Virus record (IMG/VR): IMGVR_UViG_3300042893_000474
Coordinates: 29,700-93,699 of that record
Length of the DNA: 64,000 nt
Direction: 5' to 3' (one strand)
From: a virus
A program made the position numbers and the translations under genes. The notes beneath the pieces are model-generated. The model worked only from the letters and a program-made list of their open reading frames with translations. It searched no databases and was not told the DNA's origin. Shown here piece after piece: positions 16,801 to 31,900 of the stretch. Numbering within the stretch: the stretch's first letter is position 1; every line of letters begins with the position of its first letter.

Positions 16801-17749
16801 TGTTACAGAAGACTCTATCGTTAATATGGAGATGGGTGCAGCTGTAGGTAACTTACTTGATATTATAGGCCGTGACGTACTTGGTGGCAATAAAATAAAC
16901 TCTTTAGCTGATTACATTAAAGAAGCTGAACGTATGGGCAAATCTCTTAAAGGAGGTACTGGGTATAAGATTAACTTTACTCAAGAACAGTTTGACCAAC
17001 TATTAGCAGAACTTACAGAAGTTAAGGAGGAATTAAATTCACAAGGGTGGAAGTTGTTTACTGAAGGATTGATTGTACATCGTGAGTTTACTGAAAAAGA
17101 AAAACAAGAAACTGGCTATGAAGGTGTAGCTGGAGCAATGGATATCTTAGCAGTAGATCCTGAAGGTAAAGTACACATCATTGACTTTAAGAATAAGAAG
17201 TACAGAACTCAAAATAAGTTTACAAGTACTCTGTATAGTTCTAAACAAGGTTATCCTTCTAACGTAAGCAAGTGGTCTATTCAACAAACTACCTACGCTA
17301 TCTTAGGAGAAGACTTTGGATTACCTGTAGATTCAATTAGTATCTTAGCATTTGCATCCGAGTATGCAGAAGCTAATGGTACAGTTACTATTGGTGGATT
17401 AACTCTAGGTAGTAAGAAAGCAGAAGTACTTGACAAGCATAAGAGTCCTGTGTCAACTAGTCTGATTAAACTTGGATTTGATTCTAAGATTATCAAACAT
17501 ATTAAACTGCGTACTGAAAAGCCTTCTAGAGAAATAGCTGTTAAACCTACCGAGGCTACTACTATTGCTGCCGCAGACCAAACAAACTTAGATAAGCTAC
17601 AAGAGAATTTACCACAAATAGCTTCAGAAAATGCTGAAAACGTTTTTGATGTATTAAATTTGTTAGGTATAGAAATGGATACATTAGGAGTAATTCTTCC
17701 AACTGAAGGAAGTACTGACCCTGATGCCCTTAACCCACCCCCATGTTAG
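10814..17749 (+). CDS. giant ejection protein with hydrophobic helices and C-terminal PD-(D/E)xK nuclease domain
   Basis: 2311 aa; Gly/Ala hydrophobic helices and EEGIEE motif in the middle third; GVAGAMDILAVDPEGKVHIIDFKNK...Q...Y nuclease motif; the only Cys is the last residue. Confidence 0.7.
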   Translation: MISPGTIRAASLVSKGVSPEAALRTANNIDIYTENRRSFLASNPTTNQVTPNTSINGSSTSAIPSTVVNTPTPSPMAKGVSLGNINSSLSNVAVKASKDFTKDESDAISKLAASVENPIKKKAIVFGDPTALIDDQATSEGLAKLSPKQLGQLGANLQSTLHQNYIDNLPTASSKLNFVPDQYKNKNYEKELIKNLDKLYIDYNSGLMDSPTVAGLMKAEHTKRLSSYQGLVKGFTTSKDFNGLSKSYEGLISELDLQDKNATDEFENAQRQYNRGKSDIKQTSLTVGQGSQDYQRNKNKYKALKEELSSVYNKRANAMLANEVLDIIDTRYKEASKVNPQLSKEKFFEQQQKQYGLDKSAFGLGQILVESGRFESYQDYIRFTNPTKYSKKSTTAGREQGFTLEDPFVKNNTEALDLSRSYEGMSNVQGYDQTRNRETGSYKYNDTKDDLIFTGIKFAQSISEELDNRTIKSIKEREQLKLQYNKKEMLGTSTKEDKQQYETRLAELDSQVEYSDSFSKTIPEVYKYDKIKNNGLIKSFAEDRRLFLDQQKNWNDLKNAPVQTAWYQDVALSMMVGNFGKTQTGAYWKELGNRVWGKALGMGADIAKFTDQTILNETLGVPKSASYNDRNQFYNYMRQRLDVPEVIDERASLMAGKPITSTTIFWTDPAASWYNPTGWNFSWKGTLMTGAETLPQLYAFSGAGRIAQSLGGGVLKAGLATGVTTTLLGQANAARFALTLQKTGSTAAAWGNTFRNSNNVFLKEALADRIPSALGMATVMYPEQYNRTLERLEMQGVKNARSIAHNVALLSTGIELIAENFVPNIRYLDDFAEKGTGFKSLLGKLGAKSWIGDFDQYRALYSGVLGDKFSEKSINYLARNSAELFGKVGAAGRFYASRGAEEGIEEVFSELVNGVIDAKTSYANYRQEAPNELSFDSIVNAFAGGFFVPSAGASNQMKIYTENKKYSAMYDMMINSDYYKNKINTAFKAGEITQEQATNMLSRVQDLVSVADEFGVQNLKRQPDAARFTADLVNDEDKQFDYFKQVLKARGIEEKLGKDNAVIKDEERTALLAESEEATKRIDKYKRQVSVFESMSDTQKTQIVNDTIAAKVQTAKFSSNSQILSESIENADNQLARAIQQKAPETRISALKEYRNALIQASEDRASAKQVALDRGTYNPVIQAVTSTGEASPLDLSEIKTGEDAIDVVVQSMLDPENGMDMYYHITGQTQQSLEQVKQDKENLVDNFLDYLEQTEAGPTVDNTRESAPTTANTATERVKYKTISDLNDSQKDMFEDLAERIDDELLDLQTKVEKYDSVLTQVLQHGAINANMSLEQQEKFSDFIFKKFAAVKKVGFKTNQDKGSELFDLQEFGLYLGRNQKEIEKEINDIDAAITKEENAQKVEREEVSLDGLENVDATEELKVPELTPEDITDSFTSNLNLLENIVEQQQVEVVDNQITGEVDTLVDLPRERSRIISALITEIAMNPDIKGAQAMMAAVMQVLGKSNQEIAKTLAQMGEIAENKPVNESDYTHMFNLYQLARMTENVPASTEAVENAAEDLTEAEPVVVEPIIEPVVEVIPTPVITPPATENQKDELADKTQISSTTPMFRPTSKKDLVNLVHYEIQESIIFGLNKEIRDKKDVNTAIVDLFTMIDEVLGEETLAGLEKVFNEAASLAVGEQRLQELRAEFMSLFPSGFLRQTVLDYMFDQIIVNKVAQSDVTEKGKEKLDASDEELIALNKNREVSIQMADGRKFTKVKVVSKDGVLLYAIEKGKEDGKTLWLKVDRTKDKVIGLKYPILGTRPIQFSDLNALLFTVLDNNGNIQKYGEDGNRNESGDKSLAFYLPTPKYKAEPTETQKQFNGLRQKIVAGDRVKVNAPVKGMSVSKGVVTIGQPDGSTITKNTDYALEFSTENLSVKEQTPSEATQFTQAKEAKVISENISPTQATTIAAVEKMIADSKKIPDPSKEGYLINGKRYERQSNFVKRALGDSNVVTEDSIVNMEMGAAVGNLLDIIGRDVLGGNKINSLADYIKEAERMGKSLKGGTGYKINFTQEQFDQLLAELTEVKEELNSQGWKLFTEGLIVHREFTEKEKQETGYEGVAGAMDILAVDPEGKVHIIDFKNKKYRTQNKFTSTLYSSKQGYPSNVSKWSIQQTTYAILGEDFGLPVDSISILAFASEYAEANGTVTIGGLTLGSKKAEVLDKHKSPVSTSLIKLGFDSKIIKHIKLRTEKPSREIAVKPTEATTIAAADQTNLDKLQENLPQIASENAENVFDVLNLLGIEMDTLGVILPTEGSTDPDALNPPPC

Positions 17750-17755
17750 TAAAAG

Positions 17756-20700
17756 ATGAACGCCTGTAGTATAAAAGGAACTTCCTACGAAAAAGAGTAC
17801 AGACAGATTTTGTCTGAACCTGCTATGATATTTGTTTGGAATGCAAACAATGAACAACCTTTAGATAAAAAGAAAGTAGGAAATGAGGTAATAGAAAATC
17901 CTCTTTATACTGCTCTACTAAATCACCCAGTAACAAAAGGAGAAAGACAGAATGCACTTAAGTTAGTAGCACAAAGTTTTTTACCTGCATTCACTAGAGA
18001 GTATACTCCTAACGAAGAAGGAGACTACTCTTTAGAACAAGTGGTAAGTTATGTAGAGAAGAGACAGAAACAAGCACAAGATCAAAGAGAGCAGCTAAAG
18101 TCAAGTATTAACTTGCCAACTAGCATGGCAATTAATATTCCAGATGGTGTTATTAATGAAACTGCTCGCCAAATATTCTTTTCAGAAGAACAGGGACAAG
18201 ACATCTATGACACACTTCAGTATTTACTAGGAGTAAAAAAGTCATGGGATGGTGTGTACAGTGAGTTAGTAAATCAACGTAATACTATTTTAGGTAGAGT
18301 AAAAGCAGGACAACACTTTTCTGAAGACCCTGAGAGATTAGCATACAATGAAATCCTTGTACAAAACTTTGATAAGATTAAGTCTTGGTACGATTCTAAA
18401 GAAGGTTTAGTAGGAGAAGCAGAACTTGAGAGTCAGTTTGGAGATTCTGAAGATTGGAAGTCAAAAGATAAATCACAAGCTCAAAGGGCTTCTTCTATTA
18501 TATTAGGATTAGTTACTTCATTACCTGCATACCGTACTGCTATCCCAGGAGAAATAGATTTTGAAACAGGCGAAGAATATCAACAAGTTACACAAGTTCA
18601 AGTTCAATCAACTGTAACAGGACTACCTAAGTCAGGAGACTTCCAAAAGAACTGGAGTTTACTAGGAAGTACATTGTCAGGTATGACTAATTATTCGGAC
18701 ATGTATGAGGCTATTGAAGGTTTATCTAGTAGATATCCTCAGTTTGCTTACTTGTTGAGTAAGATACCGAATGCTAAAATCCCTGGAAGTTTTAAGGATG
18801 TTAGACAATTCTTATTGGCTAGTGAATTTAAAAGAGTATTTAGTGTACCTGAAGTTTCTTCTGTAGTAGTAGACGTTACATTAAAAGAAAACGGTAAGAT
18901 TGCTACAACACAGCAACTAAAAGGATTTCAACCTGTTAGAAATGCAGTAGCTCTTTATGATTCTCAGTACTTTAGTTATAATCAAAAATATTTAGTAAAG
19001 GGTTTAGAAGGAAACGAAGTAAATCTAGAAGGAATTATAGAAGACTTTCAAGGTTTATTTAACGACTTAGGAAGTGCTTTGACTAAGAAAGTTCCTATGC
19101 AGAACTTTTTATTCCCTGCTCGTCTAGATAAGTTTGTACAGTTTTTACAATCAGTTGGACTAGGGCTTAACAATCAAGAGTATCTTAAAAGTACCAACAT
19201 TAATGGGACTAAGGAATTTATCCAAGCAAACTTAGATAAGTTAAAAACTATTTACGAGAAGTTAAAGATTGTTAGCATTGCAAATGAGTATTTAACTGAT
19301 GATGCTAAAATAAAAGTAGATAGACCTCTTTCATTTCTTAGAGATACCATCCAAGAGATTTATGTATCTAAAGGTAAAGTAAGACCTGACGTAGAGGCAG
19401 CATTAGAACAAGCTTTTGCAGATAACAAGTTGCGTTATAAAGGAGGTGTTAAACAAGCTATTGGATACTTGGGAATTAAGAAAACTGAAATTAGTCCTTT
19501 TATTAACTTCTTTACTCAATACGATGCTGAGTTTAGGCCAAGTTCTTATATGAACGCAGCAGACAAGAAAAAGTTTGTAAGAGGCCCATGGTTTTATTTA
19601 ACTCAACAAACAAATGTAATTAACTCAGTAAGCAGTTACGATGAGTTAATCAACATACCAGGTTTTGAAAGATTTGATTATCGTAAGAATCCAGATATTC
19701 TTGGATCACTTTGGTTACAAAGAATGTTTGGGTTACCTAGAACTAAGAATGCTATAGAAGCAAACCCTCTAGGTACTTATGTACGGAAGAAAGATACGTT
19801 AGGTAATCCTATAGAACTTAACATAGCCAATTTTGATGGTATGGAGATTAAAAACTTTGGAGCTAAGTCAGGTAAAACAACTACTGACCAGCATCCAAAT
19901 GATAAAATCTTCCAAGACTTTGCTAGTTTTTTCCAATCTCTTGAGATGGAAAATATTCGTTTTGGTGACAAGACAGCTGCATTTACAGTTCGTGCTTCTA
20001 ATCCAATTCTTTCTGAAAAGATATACGTGGCTTTAAATGCTGCGGAACTTATTACTCCTACGGAAAGATTAGAATCAGAAAAAAGTTTAACCGAGTTATT
20101 CAATGGTTACTTAGCTTCAGAAGCAACAAGAATCATAAAGCTGATAGAAGAAAAAGGTAGAGGTACAACGTATGACAGATTGGGTAAGAATCTCTTTATC
20201 TTTAATGACATTCTTCCTGAAGATACATTAAATAAATTCAAAGACGCTAAAACTAGAGAAGAAGTAATTGCAGCCTACACAGAGGCTACATCAATGATGT
20301 CTACTGTTTTACAAGAGTACTTCTCACAAGAGTCTCAGAAGTTAGTAGACAAGCTAGTAGATACCTTTAGTACTTCTGTAAATATTACAACAGGACAAGA
20401 GGTAACTCAAGCCCAAAGATTAAAACAAACTGTAGAGAAGTTAAATAAACTTAATCTTATAAGTACACAGTTACTGCCTAGTGAGGTTAGAGATAATCCT
20501 CCAAAGATTACAGTAGAAAACTTGCCTTATTTAGCTGAAATCTATTTGAAGAACGGCTTTGTACATAACGTTGAGTTCTTAAAAATGTTTGTTGGGGATT
20601 TATCAAATTTTGATAAAACTAATTTAGACGCTCGTGAGATATTCAAACGTATTCCTTTTACTTCTTCTCCTGGTAATGTGTTCTTTTGGGATGAAGCAGC

Positions 20701-23700
20701 TCAAGAGTTCTTTGATAATGATACAAACCAAGATGCATTAAGTATTGCTTATACAGGAGTTGCTAATAAGTTTAGTCCAATTCTTAAAACAGTTGTCTAT
20801 AATGATGTAAATACTTTTAGTTCTGAGTCTTATCAGGAGTACAAAGAAGCTTATGATAGTGACGATAGTTGGGATGCTTTAACTGAGGACGAGAAGTCAG
20901 AATTTTCTGAATACGCTAATAAACCAAAAGAAGCAGATGCTCAAGGAGTAATTACCCTAGACTCTTACCGTAACTATCTACTAGGAATCAATCGCTGGAG
21001 TTCAGAACAAGAACAGGCATATAACAGACAAGTAAGACTAGTAAAAATTAATCAGGAGTTAAATAACAATCCAACAAATGCAGAAGAATTATACAAAGAG
21101 AAGAATGAGATTGTTGAGAATTTTGGTTCTGCCTTATTCCCTCCTCTTAAGTTAGGTCACTACGGAGCTATTGTAGAAGACCCTAAGTTAATAGCATTAC
21201 ATAAGTTCTCATTGATTCCTTTGATTCCTAGCGCAATAGAAGGTAAAGCTTTAGAAAAGCAACTTGAGTTAATGTATAGGAACAAAATCAATTACTATAC
21301 ATTCAAGTCAGGTTCTAAGATGGCTCAGTATGGAGAGTCTATTGATTTCTACAAAGAAGTAACTAACGAACAAGGAGAGAAAGTACTTGTAGTAAATGAC
21401 GCACTAGGAGAAAATAATGTTACATCTATCCACCTTCAGAACTTAAGAGAGCAGCAGTATCAAGCCCCTAAGTTTAAAACTCAAGCTACACTTGCTACTC
21501 AGATGATGAAGTTGGTGTTTGGGGACTTCTTTGAGAATGGAGAAATATCTTCTGACTTTAGTGAAGGTACACAAAGACAAATTGAATCCTTGTATGATTC
21601 ATTTAAAAACAATATTAACGACCTAATTACTTTTGAAACAATTAAACTAGAAAGAAAGTTAGGAATTAGACGTAATGCAGCTAAAGAAATTATAGAAGTA
21701 GATCAGTTGCAGATGGCAAGATTTTTTGCCGAGGAGTTAGAAAATAAAGAAGCTCCTGAAGCATTACGTAGATTCATTCAAGTAAACGAAGATGGTACAT
21801 TTAAGTATCCTCTAGATGCAATCAACAACAGAAATCAATTAGAAAGTCTTGTACTAAATGTAATCAACAATAAAGTTATTTCTCAGAAAATCAATGGGGA
21901 GAGTTACATTCAGGTAGCAGGTACAGGGTTTGAGACTAAGCGATATGTTAAACCAACAGCTGAACAGTTAAAAGAGTTTGGTGCTAACGATCTTCAATTC
22001 TATACAAGAGACCCTATTACGGGGGAAACTTTACCTATGGAAGTTAAAGTAGGATTCAATGTTAAAAAACATGGAGGCTTACTTAAGTTAGAGTATGGTA
22101 AAGGGAAAGTAGAAACTTTAAAACAGTTAAATAAAATCCTAGGATCTAAAGCTCCTTTAGATATTGCTTGGAAAAAGAAGCACATGGATAAGTTAACTAT
22201 GGTAGGAGTTCGTATTCCTGTGCAAGGTTTCTCTCAAATGGAATATGCAACCATTAAAGAGTTCTTACCAGAATCTGCTGGAGCAATCATGGTTCTTCCT
22301 GCGCAGATTGTAGTTAAGTCAGGAGGAGATTATGATATTGATAAGTTGACTTTCTTTGAAACATCGTACGATAATAAGGGTGAGGTTTATAAAAAATCAT
22401 TCAACTTAAAAGATTACGAAGCCAAGTTAGAAAAGCAAAAAGAGTTAAAGAAAACTAGACAAGAGCTTATAACTTTAAGTGAGTTACTTGAGAAAGAAAT
22501 TGCTGATAACGATATCTTTAGAGAAAGAGAATCTCTTAAGAAAGAAATCAATGAAATTAAAAAAGAGATATTAAATGCTAAAGCAGCAGTAGAAGATTTC
22601 TTAGATAGTGGATTTTTAACAAAAGAAGATGCTAGCTGGGCAAGAGAAGCTGCCTCTGATAAAGAAGATTTACAAAGAGCTTTTGCTGACTTAGATAGTT
22701 TTGATACTGCAAACGATGTTCGTGTATTACAGACTGTATCTTTAATTAAAAGTAAACTTAGAGAGATCAGCAAAGAAGTAGAAAGTATAGATGCCTACAA
22801 AAAGAGTTTAAGTAATAACTTAGTAGGCATTCTTAAGGGAGTATTGATGCAAGGAGAATTATACAATGCATTGATTACTCCAAATACAAACAGTGTTTTA
22901 ACTCAGTATACACCTCCAGGAGAGAAGATAAGCACTACAGCTGTGTTTAGTCCTTTAACTTCTTGGAGAATCTATATGGAGAACATTCTTTCTAAAGATG
23001 CATTAGGAATCGATGCTAAGATAAATACGCTTCAGAAAGAATTCCAAAGAGCAGGATTGAAGATTACAGGTAGTCTACTAAAGAAGTATTACTTTGAGTC
23101 TAACAAAGACAAACAAGGAAATATAATTTTAGGAGGCAAGAAAGATGCACGGGGGGAAAACCGTATTTCTAAAGTATTGAGTGAGTTCATTAACGGACAC
23201 GTAGACATTGCTAAAGAAGACTGGATTATTTTATTAGGATTAGACCAAGAAACTAGTCCATTGGCACACGCAATGATTCTTACAGGAACTCCTGTAGAAC
23301 AAGTGTTAGGTTTAATTAACTCTCCTATTATTAAAACAGTTCTTCAGTTAGGTAATAGACCAGAGATTCAAAAGAAACTAGATAATATTAGACCTAATAA
23401 AAAGAAAGCGATTCTTGGTTTAATTAAAAACAAACTTACTAAAGTTACAGACCCTGAGGTTAAAGCATTAATTGATGCTGCTCAGTTAGCTATTAGTGGG
23501 TTGAAAGTAAAGTCTACAAATGGTATTACGGATACTTTTGTAAACAACCTACTAGTAAATCCTATATTCAACAAACATATAAGCAACTTTAAACCTACAG
23601 AAAGTTTAAGTGAGGAAGAGTCTGCTATAAGAGATTTAGCATATTTGATGCAATTCTATGTAGTAGTAAGGCAGCAGGAAAGTTTGAGAGAGTTAACTTC

Positions 23701-25816
23701 TATGAGTGACTTTAACACTACTAGTTATAGAACTTCGTTCCAGTCTGAAGAATTATTAACAGCTGGTAGCAAACTAAAGAATAACTTTAATGAAGAAGCT
23801 ATCGACTTTATGTTTAAAGAGTCTGCTTTAGCTCAGTTTAATGTAGGTAGTCTTGTTCAAGAAACTATGAGACAGATTTATCCTCTATCAGATTCTAAAG
23901 AAGTCCATTCAGATATTTATACCTTTATGGAGAGAAAAGGATTGTTCAAAGAAGAGGAAAAAATGCAAGCCATTCAAGGGTACAAGAACAATCTACTAGT
24001 TCCCTATGTTCTACTAAACGCCCAAACGCCAGAGAAAGGAAACTTACTAGAGTACTACAGAGGCAAGAAAGGAATATTTGTAAGAACAACTGCTAATAAT
24101 ATGGAAGAAAGATTCCAAAGATTATTACAGAATCCAGAAATGAGGAACAACTTTGTCATGACTAACATCTATATAGACATAGAGAACTCAGGCAGAGAGA
24201 TTGAGTTTAAACTAAAGAACACTGATGTAGACGAGAACAGTAAGAGTTATAGACTTGCTTTCTTAGAAGGTTTAAATAGTCCTAATCCAGAAGTTAAAAG
24301 TTTCTTTGAAGACTTAGGTATGGGTTCGTACTTACAGTATGCAGGTTCATATGCATCTGGCCATGTATCTACTATTGTGCCTCATGAAGTTTATGTAAGC
24401 CATACTACAAATGCTTTCAACAAACTAACCGAACTTAAAGATACTGATAGTGCTAAGTTTGATGCTTACTTAAGTTTAGTTAGATTCTCTACTAAAATGG
24501 CTCTTGAGACTGCGGGACCTATTAAAGGGTTAAGTACATTCTTTGTAAGTAACTATGCTGAGATGGCTAAGACTATTACTGGATTAAGCCCAGAAGTACT
24601 TAAGCTATATAAGAACAGAGAAAACCTCACCTCAGGTAAAGTAGAGTCTCTTCAGCAATCTCCATCTACTAGTGTTGAAGTAATTCCTCTAAATGAATCA
24701 CAAAGATTTACTAGAGAATCAGCTGAAAAAGATACAGAGTATATGTATTTATTTACAGATAATGCTGGTAGAACATCAGGCTCAGGAGTTATTGATCCTA
24801 ACAGTTGGTATGCTAAAAAATATGGTGCAGATAAAAAATATGCAAGTAAAACACAAGCTGTAGCAAGAGGTCTTAAAAATGTTTATCCTATTACTACAAT
24901 GGTAGATGATAAGAGAACTCAATGGACAGATGACCAGTTTAATGAATACAAGAAAATTATTGATGATGAAATAGAAACTATTAAACAGGCATCTAAGAAG
25001 TATAATGGTATTAAGTTTGGTGCAGAAATGCCTTTTGGTAAAGGTGCTATTTCTAATATGAAAGACAGTGCTCCTAAAATATGGAATTATCTTAATACAA
25101 AACTTGCTGAAATAGGTATTGATAATACAGGAGATATACCTGTATCTACTCAACCATCTACTAGTGTTAATCTTTTAGTAGAAGCAGGAGTTAAGCCTAC
25201 TGATATGGCAGGTAATGCTGCTAAAGATATACAGATGGCTTCTGAGTCTACTCAGTTTATTGGATTCCAATCAGGAACTGCAACTGTGAGTTCTACCAAC
25301 AAATACAAAGAAGCTTGGGGAGATAAAGCAAACACAGGAAATTATACTGCGGACGATGTAGTAATGGTTTCAGGTAGTGGTTTATTTAGGGGAGTTACTG
25401 AAGCTCAGATAAAAGAAACTTTAACTAATAAATACAAACCTTTGTTAGAACAGGCTATTGCAGCTGGTGCTTCTTTTAGAGTGGGTAATCAATATGCTAA
25501 AGGAAATCTTTCTGATCAGTTAATTGCTCAGTATCTAAAAACTAAAGGATACCAAGAGGAGAAATTTAATGGGTATTCTAAATGGACTCCTAAAGTTACT
25601 GAAACAAGTCAAGAGATTCAAAAAGAAGTTATAGAAAACTTTGAAGAAGATTCTGATGTTACGGATACCAATGTGCCAAATACTCCGACACAGTTTCCTC
25701 CAACCAAAACAGATGATATTCAACTTACCTTAAAGTTAGACCCTGATCAGAAAGATGATGATAAAGGGAACTTAGATGACTTAGGGTTTGAAGAAGATAC
25801 CTGTGAGATAGTTTAA
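17756..25816 (+). CDS. virion-packaged single-chain double-psi-barrel RNA polymerase (crAss-like)
   Basis: 2686 aa; RIPVQ...LP...GGDYDIDKL catalytic DxDxD (22328-22342); EADAQG, PPLK...HKFS, VDIAKE motifs; middle gene of the giant triplet as in crAss-like phages. Confidence 0.9.
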   Translation: MNACSIKGTSYEKEYRQILSEPAMIFVWNANNEQPLDKKKVGNEVIENPLYTALLNHPVTKGERQNALKLVAQSFLPAFTREYTPNEEGDYSLEQVVSYVEKRQKQAQDQREQLKSSINLPTSMAINIPDGVINETARQIFFSEEQGQDIYDTLQYLLGVKKSWDGVYSELVNQRNTILGRVKAGQHFSEDPERLAYNEILVQNFDKIKSWYDSKEGLVGEAELESQFGDSEDWKSKDKSQAQRASSIILGLVTSLPAYRTAIPGEIDFETGEEYQQVTQVQVQSTVTGLPKSGDFQKNWSLLGSTLSGMTNYSDMYEAIEGLSSRYPQFAYLLSKIPNAKIPGSFKDVRQFLLASEFKRVFSVPEVSSVVVDVTLKENGKIATTQQLKGFQPVRNAVALYDSQYFSYNQKYLVKGLEGNEVNLEGIIEDFQGLFNDLGSALTKKVPMQNFLFPARLDKFVQFLQSVGLGLNNQEYLKSTNINGTKEFIQANLDKLKTIYEKLKIVSIANEYLTDDAKIKVDRPLSFLRDTIQEIYVSKGKVRPDVEAALEQAFADNKLRYKGGVKQAIGYLGIKKTEISPFINFFTQYDAEFRPSSYMNAADKKKFVRGPWFYLTQQTNVINSVSSYDELINIPGFERFDYRKNPDILGSLWLQRMFGLPRTKNAIEANPLGTYVRKKDTLGNPIELNIANFDGMEIKNFGAKSGKTTTDQHPNDKIFQDFASFFQSLEMENIRFGDKTAAFTVRASNPILSEKIYVALNAAELITPTERLESEKSLTELFNGYLASEATRIIKLIEEKGRGTTYDRLGKNLFIFNDILPEDTLNKFKDAKTREEVIAAYTEATSMMSTVLQEYFSQESQKLVDKLVDTFSTSVNITTGQEVTQAQRLKQTVEKLNKLNLISTQLLPSEVRDNPPKITVENLPYLAEIYLKNGFVHNVEFLKMFVGDLSNFDKTNLDAREIFKRIPFTSSPGNVFFWDEAAQEFFDNDTNQDALSIAYTGVANKFSPILKTVVYNDVNTFSSESYQEYKEAYDSDDSWDALTEDEKSEFSEYANKPKEADAQGVITLDSYRNYLLGINRWSSEQEQAYNRQVRLVKINQELNNNPTNAEELYKEKNEIVENFGSALFPPLKLGHYGAIVEDPKLIALHKFSLIPLIPSAIEGKALEKQLELMYRNKINYYTFKSGSKMAQYGESIDFYKEVTNEQGEKVLVVNDALGENNVTSIHLQNLREQQYQAPKFKTQATLATQMMKLVFGDFFENGEISSDFSEGTQRQIESLYDSFKNNINDLITFETIKLERKLGIRRNAAKEIIEVDQLQMARFFAEELENKEAPEALRRFIQVNEDGTFKYPLDAINNRNQLESLVLNVINNKVISQKINGESYIQVAGTGFETKRYVKPTAEQLKEFGANDLQFYTRDPITGETLPMEVKVGFNVKKHGGLLKLEYGKGKVETLKQLNKILGSKAPLDIAWKKKHMDKLTMVGVRIPVQGFSQMEYATIKEFLPESAGAIMVLPAQIVVKSGGDYDIDKLTFFETSYDNKGEVYKKSFNLKDYEAKLEKQKELKKTRQELITLSELLEKEIADNDIFRERESLKKEINEIKKEILNAKAAVEDFLDSGFLTKEDASWAREAASDKEDLQRAFADLDSFDTANDVRVLQTVSLIKSKLREISKEVESIDAYKKSLSNNLVGILKGVLMQGELYNALITPNTNSVLTQYTPPGEKISTTAVFSPLTSWRIYMENILSKDALGIDAKINTLQKEFQRAGLKITGSLLKKYYFESNKDKQGNIILGGKKDARGENRISKVLSEFINGHVDIAKEDWIILLGLDQETSPLAHAMILTGTPVEQVLGLINSPIIKTVLQLGNRPEIQKKLDNIRPNKKKAILGLIKNKLTKVTDPEVKALIDAAQLAISGLKVKSTNGITDTFVNNLLVNPIFNKHISNFKPTESLSEEESAIRDLAYLMQFYVVVRQQESLRELTSMSDFNTTSYRTSFQSEELLTAGSKLKNNFNEEAIDFMFKESALAQFNVGSLVQETMRQIYPLSDSKEVHSDIYTFMERKGLFKEEEKMQAIQGYKNNLLVPYVLLNAQTPEKGNLLEYYRGKKGIFVRTTANNMEERFQRLLQNPEMRNNFVMTNIYIDIENSGREIEFKLKNTDVDENSKSYRLAFLEGLNSPNPEVKSFFEDLGMGSYLQYAGSYASGHVSTIVPHEVYVSHTTNAFNKLTELKDTDSAKFDAYLSLVRFSTKMALETAGPIKGLSTFFVSNYAEMAKTITGLSPEVLKLYKNRENLTSGKVESLQQSPSTSVEVIPLNESQRFTRESAEKDTEYMYLFTDNAGRTSGSGVIDPNSWYAKKYGADKKYASKTQAVARGLKNVYPITTMVDDKRTQWTDDQFNEYKKIIDDEIETIKQASKKYNGIKFGAEMPFGKGAISNMKDSAPKIWNYLNTKLAEIGIDNTGDIPVSTQPSTSVNLLVEAGVKPTDMAGNAAKDIQMASESTQFIGFQSGTATVSSTNKYKEAWGDKANTGNYTADDVVMVSGSGLFRGVTEAQIKETLTNKYKPLLEQAIAAGASFRVGNQYAKGNLSDQLIAQYLKTKGYQEEKFNGYSKWTPKVTETSQEIQKEVIENFEEDSDVTDTNVPNTPTQFPPTKTDDIQLTLKLDPDQKDDDKGNLDDLGFEEDTCEIV
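24662..25168 (+). repeat. 15-bp direct repeat CCATCTACTAGTGTT (PSTSV) flanking an in-frame 164-codon domain
   Basis: Exact copies at 24662-24676 and 25154-25168, 492 bp apart. Confidence 0.85.
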
Positions 25817-25827
25817 CTTACAAAGTG

Positions 25828-25857
25828 AAGGGGTGCAAGTCTTTACTTGCATTCCTT
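25828..25857 (+). terminator. stem-loop after RNAP gene (terminator or processing site)
   Basis: AAGGGGTGCAAGT-CTTT-ACTTGCATTCCTT, 13-bp stem with two G-U pairs, followed by GTTATTT. Confidence 0.6.
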
Positions 25858-25876
25858 GTTATTTCGATTAAATTTG
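25847..25876 (+). promoter_or_regulatory. Bacteroidota sigma-70-type promoter
   Basis: TTG (25847-25849)-N19-TAAATTTG (25869-25876) upstream of 25903. Confidence 0.75.
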
Positions 25877-25902
25877 TATAACTAATAATACAACATTCTA
25901 CA

Positions 25903-28900
25903 ATGTCTTGTTTTGCAAAAATAAAATCTCCACTCAACGGTAAAACTATAACTAGTCCTGCCTACTACCAATTAACATCATTTTTTCCACCTGCTGAAGG
26001 GAGAAGAATATATGAGGCTACTACCACTATTAGTTTTAAAACCGAAATTGGTTTTGATTGGACTAAACGTCAACAAGGATACAGCCCTAAGCTAAACTTT
26101 GCTGGGGAGCCTACTTTAGATCAAATCAATACACACCTTAGACTAAACTTAAATCCACGGGAGATTAGAGCAGGAGAACAAATGGATGAAGTAGCAAGTC
26201 TAGGTTACCTAAACAAAGGTTATGCTAATCCAAATGCTTTTAACCTAATCACCAACGAGATTAACTTAAACCCCAAATATAGTTTAATAGAGAGCGAGGT
26301 ACTAGCAAGAGACGGCAAGTACTATCTATCAGTTAAACCAGTACCAAATGGCAAGTCTGTAAAACCTGTAAGTAAAGATTACTTAAGAACAGTAAAGTTT
26401 CCTGATATGATTGTTAACAGTGTTGAGGATTTTTCCAATGCAGGGTTAATAGAGTTGATGGATAACTTACTTAAGAACAAAGAGTTACCTCCTTTCCAAC
26501 ACAAGATGTTAGAAAGATTGCGTAATTTAATGAAGATAAACCCAACACTTAAACTTGCAGTATTTGATGATGCTGAAGTAGACCAAGAGTTTCAAAGGTC
26601 ATTTTACGACCCCAAGAGTAACACCATATACATTGGTAAGACAATAACATCAGATTTTAATAAAGAATCATTTGCTCGTGAGTTAATTCACGAAGCAGTG
26701 CATGCTTATACTATCTCAGCTTTAACTAATCCAGTAACTGCCGAAGAGAATAGATTCAGACAGGAGATGGAAAGATACATCTCTGAGTATAAATCTAAGT
26801 TTCCTAGACTACAACAGCAGTATGGTTTTAAAAATGTAGAAGAATTTGTTTCGGAGTATCTCTCTAATCCCTACTTTAGAAATGATTTACAGGAAGCAGA
26901 GAGAACAAGTAAAGATAAAACATTTATAGGCCGTGTTACAGGCAACATAAAGAGATTCTTAAAGAACGTATTAGGTTTAGGAGATACTTTGTTTGACAGA
27001 GTTAACCAAACGATAGATGATTACTTTGACTATCTGGAGAATCTAGAAGACATGCCTGACCTTGCAGGTGAGCATGAACTAAGATTTAACCAACCTTATG
27101 CAGCACAGCCTGTAAACCCACTTAGTGTTAACTTGAGTCAGTTCCAACAGTATGTTGATAGTACTTTTAATAGTTCTAGTTGGAAGCAACTAAGTCAAGG
27201 GTTATCTGAGATTGATCCACGTTTTGCTTCTATTGAAAGAATTAGGGAGAAATTTGGAAACATCTCAAGTGCGTCATTAGGCAGCACTATTAAATCTTCT
27301 ATTGACTATCTAGTAGCAATAGAGCAACTAGTAGATAGAGTTGCTAAGGATGTTGATTTGCACAGAGACAACTTAGGCTATTATAGTTCAGAAGATGCTG
27401 TATCGGTATTTAATCATGCAATACATATAGCTGAGTTTGTTCAAGAGCAGATGGCTGCTTACAATCAATATTTGATGCCTCAGTTGAGGATGGAACAAAC
27501 AAAAACTGACTTAGATATAAACCCTGTAGGAGCTGCAGAATTTAGACAAGAGCGTAGAAGTCAAGTAGAGAATTTTGATATTGTATCTCAGGAGTTAATT
27601 GCCAAACTTAAAGGTATCTCTAACAAATCAAACAGTTTAAAGAGTGAAGCTAAGTCTTCTATTTTAGCTCCAGTAGCATCCCAGTTAAGTGAGCCTTTTA
27701 TATTAATTGCTGCTCAGTTAAAAGAGCCCAACAGTCAATTGAACCAAGAGATTGATGCTAAAGAAAAGTTGTATCAACAAGCTTTGGCAAGCAATCAGAA
27801 TAAGAAAGCAGCTGATATGTTAAAGGACTTGAATCAACTTAGAATGTTTAGAGATTGGGTTCCTACCCAACAAAACATTATTAAGTTGCTTCAGACTGGT
27901 ATGAATCCTGAGTACACAGGTGCTAACTTTTTTACTATTTACTTGGGAGTGGCTAACATGACAGGTAGCCCTTTGGTTCAAGTAGTTAAAGAATACTTAG
28001 ACGTACACTTGACTGAAGCAGGTAACAAGAGTCTTGAGTACACCAATAGAGCAAGTAAATTATTTGATAAAATTGAAGCTAGGAATAAAAAGCAAGGTAT
28101 TCGTTGGACACAAAGTATAGACAACTTTTACAAGAACTTAACTCGTGAGGTTGATATGGTTTACTATGACGCCAATGGTGTGCGTAGAGTAGTAAAACAA
28201 CTTGCTTATAATACAAAGTTTAAAGAAGCTGAGTTCAGAAATGATTTACAGGAGTTAAAAAGAAATGTAGATTCGGCTAAAAAGGGAGGAGTAGAGGCAG
28301 AAATAGTAGAAGCTCAAGAAAAATTACAAAAGTTCCTAGATGATTACGCAGTACGCCCTTACACAGATGAATACTATGAAGCAGAAGATTTATTAATTTC
28401 AGAAGCTAGAGATGCTAGAGCAGATTTATTAGACCAACTAGAAGAGCACCAGGCTGTGTTTGGAGATGCAGAGGCTAGTCAAGAAGAAAGAAAGCATAGA
28501 ACAGAGTTAAGAAGAGCTTATGAAAGACTAGGTTCTATTTATAATGAAGATGGTACTGAGAAACCTAAAGGAACTAAAGAAAGAAACATTGCAGATTCTA
28601 TTATTGCTTATAAAAATAAACGTAAGGCACTAGAAGCTATTGAATTTGTAATCCCAGATAAAGTTAAAGTACGTTTTGATATTGAGAAGAACTCACGTAA
28701 ACAAAAAGTAGCTGACTTAGAACGTAAGATTAGTATCTTAAATACTGATATTGCAGATGAGATTGCTCTTGGGCAGGATCCTACTACTAAACAAAATGAG
28801 TTAGTAGATATAACAGCACAGCTAGAAATAGCTAAAAATGATTTAACTAAATGGCTCAATGCTAACACTCGTACTGAGATTGACCCTGAGTTTTTTGAAT

Positions 28901-31900
28901 TGCAAAGAAGCATTGCAGATAAAATCAAAAACATCTTTCTTAAATATGGAGAAGATCCTTTATTAAGTGAGGCGTATGATGAGTTGTTTAATTCAGTTAA
29001 AGGGTACAGAGACCAGGATGGTATTATAGTAGGTAGCCAAATCCAGAGAGGATTAGGACAAACTATTAAAGACTTAGAGACAAAGATTGAAAAACTTAAA
29101 GAGGACGCAGAAGAAAATAGACAGATATCTGACCAAGATAAAGAAACTCTAAAAGTTCTATTCAAACAGATCAGCGATATTCAAACTAAAGAAACTACTG
29201 AATACTACGTAGAGCAATACAACAGCGTTGCTCGTGCCGCTAGAGTAGACTTATATGCAGATGCTCAACAAGTAATAGAGATTAAAGAACTTTCGGAAAA
29301 ATTAGCAGACCAGTATATTGAGAATGAAGGTTTAGTTGACGAAGATTTAGAGTTAGACGATAACTTACCTGTTCTAAACCATCCTTCTGAATTTGGTACA
29401 GATAAACATAGGAATGATTTGATATCTTCTTATGAGAATATGATTACTGAGATGCGTTTGCAACAAAGAATCAAAGAAAGCGATTGGTATAAAGGAAATC
29501 ATATTTCTATTAAGAAGAGTTACACAGATAAAAAGACAGGAAAGAAAGTAATTAAGATTTACGAAAGACCTATTTATATCTGGAACCGTACTATTCCTCG
29601 TAATGCTGCTTATATAAAACAAGAGAACCCAAACTTTGATTGGGCAGTACCTAGAGTTAGAGATGAGTACAAAAACAAAGATTATAATTTCTTAGGTTCT
29701 GCTAGACCTAGACAAACTACAGACAATAAATATACTAACGAAGTTTATACTAAATCACTACAAGACGATAAAGACATTGCTGATGAGATGGTAGGTCTTT
29801 ATGAGGACATACAAAGAAACTTGCCTGTATCACAACGTCTTGAAGGTTATGTTGTACCTAACAAGACTAGAGAGGCTAAAGAAAATATAACTGATATGTT
29901 TACTAATCCTTTGGCTAGATTCAAAGGTTGGGTAGATGGTTGGAAACTTATCTTTAAACCAGGTTTAGCGGGAGAAGATCAGTATGAAGATGAGATATCT
30001 AGTTTAATTAATGAAGAAGACAAACAAAAGATATCAAAATCAAAAAGAAAAGTACAATTAATTAAAACCAGATATAAAGAACCTTTAAACACAAATCAAG
30101 TATCCCGTGTATTAGTTCAATCACTTGCTGAGTATGGTGCATATGCTGCTGAATTTGGAGGATTAAAGAAAGCAATGCCTGCAGTATTTGCTGCTAGAGA
30201 AGCTGCTTTAGAGACAAACATACCTGATGGAGATGTTCAGATGCTGGATAATGAGATTCAAAGATTCTTTTATGGAGGGGAAGTAAGCAATACTAGTTTG
30301 GGAAATAATCCATACATGAAGGCTACTATGCGTGCTATGAGAAGAATGTTCAGGTTTAGTCAGAGTCGAGTCTTGTTGTTTAATTTTCTGCGTGTATTTA
30401 AAAACATCTTTAACAACTTCCTTAAGATTGTTTTAAGTAAGAATAAGTATGGATTAACTAGAAAAGAATTACTCAGAGCATGGTGGAAAGGTTTAAATAT
30501 GAGGCGAAGTCTGGTATCACTAGAGATAGGTTCTAAACAACATAGTGACTATGCATTAAAACTAGTTCATTTTAGAGCGTTACCTGCAGCAGACCCAACT
30601 AAACTAGCATCAAACGTACACCAAACAAGTATTTTTAAATACGCCAACGCTGAGAATTTCAGTGGTCAGATATTTGGATATATGGAGATGGCTTCTACCA
30701 TACCTATTTATGAAGCATTAATTGCTCGTTTGGATGTACCTATTGTAATTAACGGTCAACAAACTAGAATTAACTTAAGCGATGCTTACGAAGTAATTGA
30801 TGGTATTCTTGTTCCAAAAGAAGGAGTATTTGGATTAGAGTTAAACGCAATGCGTTCTTTAGTAGAAGATAGAAAGCAAATAATATCAACGTATTTAGCC
30901 CAAGAAGGAGTCTCTACTATAGAAAAATTAAGCAGTGCGCAAAAGACAAAGTTAAAAGGACTATTAACTTCAATAGACGTAAAGATTAATAGTTTAGAAA
31001 AAGTAAACTCAGTAAAGCAAGAAAAGTTAAAATTAATAGAACAACAGTTAAGAGACCAGATACACGAATTATACACTAGTACACAGGGTAACTACTACGG
31101 AAGATCTCGTTCTGCTTATGAGAAGAATCTTTTTGCAAGTATGGTAATGTCTATGAGACGCTGGTTAGCTCCTAATCTTCAGACAAACTTTGGACAGCGT
31201 AGACTTTCTTTGTACACAGGTAATCTAGAAGGAGGATTTTATGCAGAGGGTGGAAAATCTTTACTTAGAAAAATGCGATACTTAGTCGCTGGAGAGAGAA
31301 TGGATTTAGGAAGTACTGAGTTTGAGAAAGAAAAGCATCAAAGAATATTTAGAGATACTTTAAACGTAGTAGGACTACATGCTATCTCATTAGGATTAAC
31401 TTCACTTTTATTTATGGGATTAGGAGGTGGAGGAGATGATGACCCTTCTAAGTTGTTATCACTTCTAGCTATTATTTCTTTAGGTACATATGATGAAGCA
31501 ATTAGTTTACATCCATTACTAGCTCCTGCAAACTGGACTTATAAAACATTCTTTAGACAGCCTTTGGCAAGACCAGGAGATGAAGAAGGAGGTGCTAGTA
31601 GTGCAGTGAGACATGGACTCTATGCTTTATTTGGACCTCAGATGAGAAGTTTTGACCAAATTTTTGAAGCAATTTTTGACTCAAGAAATATTACAGACCC
31701 ATTTGAACCTTACTACGAACAAAGAAGAGACATGGGAGGTAATAGTATTGTTAATACCCCTGCTCCTACTAGAGGATTACCTAGAGTACTTGCAATGGCT
31801 ATGAAGTATTATGGAGTAGAGTCAGGTTTAAAACCATTCTATGCGCCTAGAAAAAGAGTTATGGATATGTTAAAACTTAATCCTATGTTAGGAATGCAAG

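Follow-up and report, generated by a model that had tools for sequence, protein, structure and literature searches.

A diverged N-terminal domain shared by two giant cargo proteins of a marine crAss-like phage, with a possible part in joining them tail to head

The present analysis deals with a window of 64,000 nucleotides (35% G+C; positions 29,700 to 93,699 of IMG/VR virus record IMGVR_UViG_3300042893_000474, which is 93.7 kb long and 81% complete) from a marine crAss-like phage. Three giant open reading frames (ORFs) follow one another in it on the same (+) strand and encode the cargo protein P1 (10814-17749; 2311 aa), a virion RNA polymerase (RNAP; 17756-25816; 2686 aa) and the zincin-bearing cargo protein P3 (25903-32340; 2145 aa). 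RNAP and P3 each begin with a small α/β domain, here referred to as the head, with a core of ~70 residues and a fold that has been solved as residues 2-95 of PDB entry 6VR4, the virion RNAP of phage phi14:2. Because intermediate sequence profiles connect the two heads and both are placed on the same solved structure, they are concluded, with good confidence, to be very diverged homologues. In the crassviruses sampled, heads were found only on the free N-termini of proteins that come after a protein ending in cysteine, and the head carries the only N-terminal cysteine of its protein, at position 3-5. The head may well take up the cysteine-ended tail of the protein that precedes it and so link P1, RNAP and P3 as a chain, a proposal to which we give about even odds. 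A literature search turned up no paper describing a shared head, or a rule for the placement of these cysteines, in crassviruses.

Homology of the RNAP and P3 heads

The head module comprises residues 1-105 of RNAP (17756-18070, + strand; Cys4 codon at 17765-17767) and residues 1-99 of P3 (25903-26199, + strand; Cys3 codon at 25909-25911). A preliminary description of this DNA had proposed, from the letters alone, that the two proteins share an N-terminal module, and both ORFs with the motifs it quoted were found in place. The evidence now comes from profile–profile comparison with hhalign for both heads, from AlphaFold2 (AF2) models of both, and from searches of structures with VIA-align and of BFVD for P3. 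Eight significant profile edges tie the two heads together through three intermediates in a single register, with RNAP residue 43 placed at about P3 residue 13, in agreement with the alignment given in that description. The profiles were drawn from 13 annotated crassvirus genomes and 80 IMG/VR loci, the marine P3 head profile being enriched with P0062-P0066. From the cysteine onward, the marine RNAP heads align with the Suoliviridae P3 heads over 84 columns (P=4.3e-13, probability 98%), and with the Steigviridae P3 heads at P=2.5e-4. The marine P3 heads align with the P3 heads of the Suoliviridae (P=3.4e-5) and the Steigviridae (P=3.4e-4) and with the phi14:2 RNAP head (P=1.8e-4), which is reached in turn from the P3 heads of both these families (Suoliviridae, P=1e-6; Steigviridae, P=1.7e-5). 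The four weakest edges score 27-33 and so lie above every one of the 55 column shuffles made for each of them, among which the maximum was 19. Searches with hidden Markov models (HMMs) in a local set of 34 proteins are in line with these results: a model built only from Suoliviridae P3 heads matches residues 13-97 of the window RNAP (E=5e-10), and a model of all P3 heads matches residues 1-71 of the phi14:2 RNAP (E=8e-12). The only match that the RNAP head has in the phage collection, a weak one, is the head of the P3 protein of cr130_1.

AF2 models were made from independent alignments, P0062-P0066 entering the fold alignment as full-length rows, and reached a predicted local distance difference test (pLDDT) value of 92.4 and a predicted template modelling (pTM) score of 0.85 for the RNAP head, and of 86.5 and 0.79 for the P3 head. 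The RNAP model has helices at 10-16 and 21-30, a hairpin at 38-47 and helices at 49-55, 64-73, 77-80 and 93-104; the P3 model has a hairpin at 6-17, helices at 19-27, 30-39 and 43-49, a long loop, and helices at 72-79 and 85-99. Common to both is the order hairpin-helix-helix-helix-loop-helix. The loop is longer in P3, and RNAP carries, between Cys4 and the shared core, two extra helices (~30 aa) that P3 does not have. Compared by VIA-align with 48,161 PDB chains, the P3 head finds as its top match residues 2-95 of 6VR4 (Z 5.5-5.6; root-mean-square deviation (rmsd) 3.1-3.3 Å over 76-77 aa), the sole chain with Z>=5, the next being at 4.2. Residues 34-101 of the RNAP head fall on residues 2-94 of the same chain, weakly (Z 3.3, rmsd 3.7 Å, 64 aa) and at rank 5, tied with unrelated chains. 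Both heads are thus mapped within the first 95 of the 2166 residues of the 6VR4 chain. In BFVD, the top match of the P3 head is the first fragment, 1090 residues long, of a structural protein from phi14:2 (TMq 0.51, rmsd 2.4 Å); in all likelihood this is the first half of the 2180-aa phi14:2 RNAP.

Several results speak against a common origin of the heads. Compared directly, the two N-termini are at the level of chance: BLASTP between residues 1-120 of RNAP and of P3 gave E=11 in a different register, and the HMM-HMM comparison, which the preliminary description had named as a check of its claim, came out negative, with P=0.8 for the family profiles, P=0.3 once these were made richer, and scores of 8-11 (11.3 for the richer set) that match the mean of the column-shuffle null (mean 11, sd 2.2, maximum 19; 55 shuffles per tested edge). 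With a profile of 14 marine P3 heads, a search of 1.84 billion representatives recovered only P3 heads of the marine lineage and no RNAP; an extra match of this whole-library search, P0068, was set aside as a repeat-protein false positive. Direct sequence comparison of the window RNAP head with that of phi14:2 was not significant either (P=0.06), and Foldseek against the PDB returned no match at E<=0.001 for either head model. On these models, Z values of 5.5 and 3.3 are middling and below a level that would be safe alone. Finally, the cysteine, which the preliminary description had aligned between RNAP and P3, does not occupy an equivalent position in the fold of the two heads.

Could the resemblance of the two N-termini then be a matter of chance, with unrelated small domains sharing no more than a position and a cysteine? 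The null-level direct comparisons, the whole-library search without RNAP and the weak placement of the RNAP head on 6VR4 all point that way. They are met by the eight profile edges in one register, the four of them tested by shuffling standing far above their shuffles, by the same element order in independently derived models, by the N-terminus of a crassvirus RNAP as top match of the P3 head both among PDB representatives and in BFVD, and by the mapping of both models to one small part of a long chain. We consider chance resemblance unlikely. The shared module of the preliminary description is accordingly retained, as a relationship visible through intermediates and structure and lost in direct comparison; its structural check gave the same order of elements and a common placement on 6VR4, with the RNAP match remaining weak.

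A further possibility is that the module represents a mere N-terminal extension of the enzyme domain that follows (ART-PolyVal, zincin or polymerase), without a function of its own. In P3 of the Suoliviridae type, the ART-PolyVal domain (PF18760) begins at residue 90, immediately following the head, and the last motif quoted in the preliminary description (G-E-P-x-L) coincides with the start of the PF18760 profile. The same head, however, precedes three unrelated domains (polymerase, zincin and ART) and is predicted as a separate compact unit (pTM 0.79-0.85). Searches with full proteins and with heads found no Pfam or PHROGs family that covers the head, and PF18760 has no match on either window head. 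The extension is considered very improbable. As a separate observation, residues 2298-2335, in the C-terminal region of the Steigviridae P1 from cr85_1 (L042), match the latter half of the P3-head profile (E=9e-8, small set); this segment resembles the F-x-x-W...N-G-E-P motif that opens ART-PolyVal domains.

All 80 Suoliviridae-type P3 heads from IMG/VR begin M-x(1-5)-C-P. Since synonymous changes are frequent in the first codons, selection on the head is judged, from codon evidence, to act at the protein level; conservation for RNA-level reasons or for translational coupling is ruled out by the same changes. Two annotated proteins start 21 and 32 codons upstream of an M-S-C (L036 16137, MW067000 QOR56370; L037 16089, crAss002 gp33, respectively). 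The M-S-C start is conserved in all relatives of these proteins, and the annotated N-termini of QOR56370 and crAss002 gp33 are probably too long.

Cysteines at the junctions of the cargo proteins

P1, RNAP and P3 of the window contain four cysteines in 7,142 residues, all of them on termini that face each other. The sole cysteine of P1 is its last residue, Cys2311, in the C-terminal tail ..GSTDPDALNPPPC (17711-17746, + strand), the Cys codon TGT at 17744-17746 being followed by the double stop TAG TAA; the end comprises ~10 residues after a disordered acidic/proline stretch. RNAP has exactly two, Cys4 in the head and Cys2683, fourth from the end, in the tail ..NLDDLGFEEDTCEIV (25772-25813, + strand; Cys codon 25802-25804). 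P3 has only Cys3. Side by side with this, the larger cargo block at 2971-32340 encodes seven consecutive cargo-type proteins, 9,669 aa in all, with only these four cysteines, and cysteine makes up 1-5% of the products of the non-cargo genes, including the replication genes on the other strand. P1, for which the preliminary description had noted the absence of the module and a serine/threonine/proline-rich start, indeed has such an N-terminus and gives no match to the head HMM.

Exactly two cysteines are present in 24/24 family RNAPs and exactly one in 31/35 P3 proteins; a cysteine lies within the last 7 residues of all 24 RNAPs, that of the window included, and the P1 tail cysteine is kept in all relatives, in the forms NPPPC, NEKDC, NPPTC and NPKPCT. 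Across a junction sample of 18 genomes from Steigviridae, Suoliviridae, Intestiviridae and the marine clade (IAS P1 left out), a tail cysteine in the last 1-9 residues faces a head cysteine at position 3-5 at every unfused junction checked, and heads and cysteine-bearing tails occur in equal numbers. Where two of the proteins are fused, P1 with RNAP in Suoliviridae or RNAP with P3 in Intestiviridae, there is one cysteine pair instead of two, and an HMM search did not detect a head inside the fused proteins; in the cr118_1 fusion, only ~42 residues separate the P1-like from the RNAP-body-like part, leaving no room for a head. The P1 tail cysteine is also kept in crAss001, cr85_1 and cr128_1, though there the P1 gene is on the other strand.

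Several other accounts of the junctions were rejected. The double stop TAG TAA excludes that P1 is continued into RNAP by read-through of a stop codon or by recoding. Autoprocessing by a split intein or Hint domain finds no Pfam match to either in P1, RNAP or P3, and the location of the head cysteine at position 3-5 of a folded α/β domain also speaks against a split intein. For a metal bridge, each side offers one cysteine, with a neighbouring histidine only in Suoliviridae tails. Electrostatic complementarity between heads (charge +0.7) and tails (-1.3) amounted to a weak trend only.

The middle protein is identified as a crAss-type virion RNA polymerase, of the type of phi14:2 gp66, because its sequence contains the catalytic motif GGDYDIDK and because its residues 1301-1800 match 82 crassvirus records, including phi14:2 and crAss001, by tblastn. 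By BLASTP, its body is collinear with the fused RNAPs of crassviruses. P3 is marked by HEAVH at residues 263-267. The gene order P1-RNAP-P3 is that of phi14:2 gp078-gp077-gp076. Relatives at 49-99% identity are present in IMG/VR and in protein collections; megablast and tblastn found no close relative of the region in the phage collection. RNAP length in the family ranges over 2323-3125 aa with both termini constant, as would fit cassettes of accessory domains close to the C-terminus, and Pfam DUF7831 matches RNAP residues 2317-2447 just under the cut-off. The marine RNAP tails fall into two unrelated types, ..GFEE-x-x-C-[DE]-[IV] and ..[IV]-[DN]-P-C-[GE], the second of which resembles the P1 tails (N-P-x-x-C). 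In cr108_1 (L130 18444-18735), ~290 nt split the RNAP gene within the catalytic motif (..AGSD / LYDIDK..). Since terminal cysteines are absent at this break, it looks like an intron or a break of annotation or assembly, and not like a protein junction.

Role of the head

The head is understood, in the proposal we favour, as the acceptor side of a head-to-tail junction, which would hold the C-terminal tail of the preceding protein. On oxidation of the particle, a disulfide would link tail and head cysteine; P1, RNAP and P3 would be strung as one thread, to be packaged and ejected in order, and reduction in the cytoplasm would release the three proteins. The best precedent for this reading is the tail-in-cleft disulfide of cyanophage A4, alongside which stand the disulfides of the crAss001 tail and the avoidance of cysteine in Schitoviridae ejection proteins. 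A docking role is consistent with the comparative sequence data given above.

Alternatively, the heads are homologous and the domain serves a role other than tail docking, for instance as a packaging or capsid-targeting handle, as a leader that enters the portal or tail channel first or as a regulatory part of the cargo; the terminal cysteines might in that case pair unaided by the domain, or have another binding partner. Such a role agrees with the suggestion for phi14:2 that activation involves refolding or cleavage of the domain upstream of the Cleft-blocking domain (Drobysheva 2020, bioRxiv 10.1101/2020.03.07.982082). The behaviour of tails and heads also weighs on this side and against docking. 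Tail type can switch while the head stays unchanged: L016 (tail ..DINPC) and L017 (..GFEETACDV) have P3 heads ~90% identical and RNAP tails that are unrelated (compared at L016 684-9284 and L017 3-2780). The first 10 residues of the head do not co-vary with the tail. The cysteine is always at the extreme N-terminus regardless of module architecture, and some cysteine-bearing heads lack the module, which hhalign did not detect in crAss001-type RNAP, Intestiviridae RNAP or phi14:2 P3 heads. Failure to detect the head in fused proteins could reflect divergence instead of loss. Thioredoxin was not found in the genome record of the window, which is 81% complete; as a separate observation, thioredoxin-like proteins are annotated in several gut crassviruses (L036, L130, L131).

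A role other than docking has to accommodate, on the other hand, that P1 is packaged without a head, that heads and cysteine tails correspond exactly in number, and that the head is undetectable where the junction is a peptide bond. Moreover, two junctions per virion require some specificity against wrong pairings. A non-docking role is a real though lesser possibility in our estimate, and we retain docking of the tail as the preferred reading.

Extending the docking proposal, it is conceivable, as a tentative idea that we consider rather doubtful, that the head constitutes a portable 'socket' which together with the short cysteine-ended tails makes a programmable, redox-cleavable connector. 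Divergence between the two heads of a phage would then give its two junctions separate specificities, cargo genes across the Crassvirales would undergo fusion and fission through gain and loss of the tail/head pair, and the connector would fix the P1-RNAP-P3 order of an ejected thread of ~0.8 MDa.

The crAss-like phages are the most abundant human gut viruses, and their giant cargo proteins were reportedly not resolved in the 2023 atlas of crAss001. How crAss cargo is loaded, ordered and ejected is the question addressed by the head domain. A head of ~90 residues with a solved fold, located at the site where a cysteine-ended tail would arrive, brings the proposed cargo chain within reach of bench experiments. 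If it proved true, the chain would represent a natural covalent protein connector that is releasable by redox chemistry.

Comparison with known systems

The nearest structural relative of the head is the N-terminal domain of the phi14:2 virion RNAP gp66 (GenBank gp077; 6VR4 2-95), which likewise starts M-A-C. The Drobysheva 2020 preprint makes no mention of this domain being shared with the zincin protein or of a role for it at a junction.

The closest precedent for the proposed junction comes from cyanophage A4, in which the C-terminal helix of gp27 inserts in a cleft of gp26 and is fixed there by a Cys1715-Cys5 disulfide (PNAS 2025, PMC12002296; PDB 9K3A). The termini in the window match this arrangement, with the upstream cysteine in the last few residues and the downstream one at about position 5. 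A4 differs in belonging to another phage group and in having one junction, within a pentameric ring, whereas two are proposed here that chain three proteins; the disulfide was observed in A4, and the crassvirus link is proposed from sequences. As to homology between the two, the comparison with PDB chains gave only the A4 chain 9k3a_B, at Z 2.9 and on residues 1491-1597, which is another region.

In crAss001, disulfides stabilise the tail, and the cargo must partly unfold to exit (PMC10172136). In Schitoviridae (N4 gp50-52, DEV gp71-73), suppression of cysteine has been explained by passage through the periplasm (PMC11445570). There, too, a giant virion RNAP is ejected with partner proteins and cysteine is strongly suppressed; the Schitoviridae proteins have essentially none, whereas in the crassvirus cargo precisely the terminal cysteines are retained.

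Polyketide synthases and nonribosomal peptide synthetases (PKS/NRPS) use docking domains, short C- and N-terminal elements that order separate polypeptides and are dispensable when modules are fused. The likeness to the crassvirus heads is one of analogy only, as PKS/NRPS docking is non-covalent and the folds are unrelated.

Also comparable to the proposed chain are the fused RNAP-block polyproteins of other Crassvirales, for which proteolytic cleavage was proposed (Yutin 2018, cited in Drobysheva 2020, bioRxiv 10.1101/2020.03.07.982082). At their fused junctions, neither the cysteines nor a recognisable head was found, and it is cleavage, not redox release, that was proposed for them. All three proteins are represented in them in unchanged order, with a peptide bond in place of the proposed Cys-Cys link. 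Docking of cysteine-ended tails, if true, would explain why these proteins form joint polypeptides in some families and separate ones in others.

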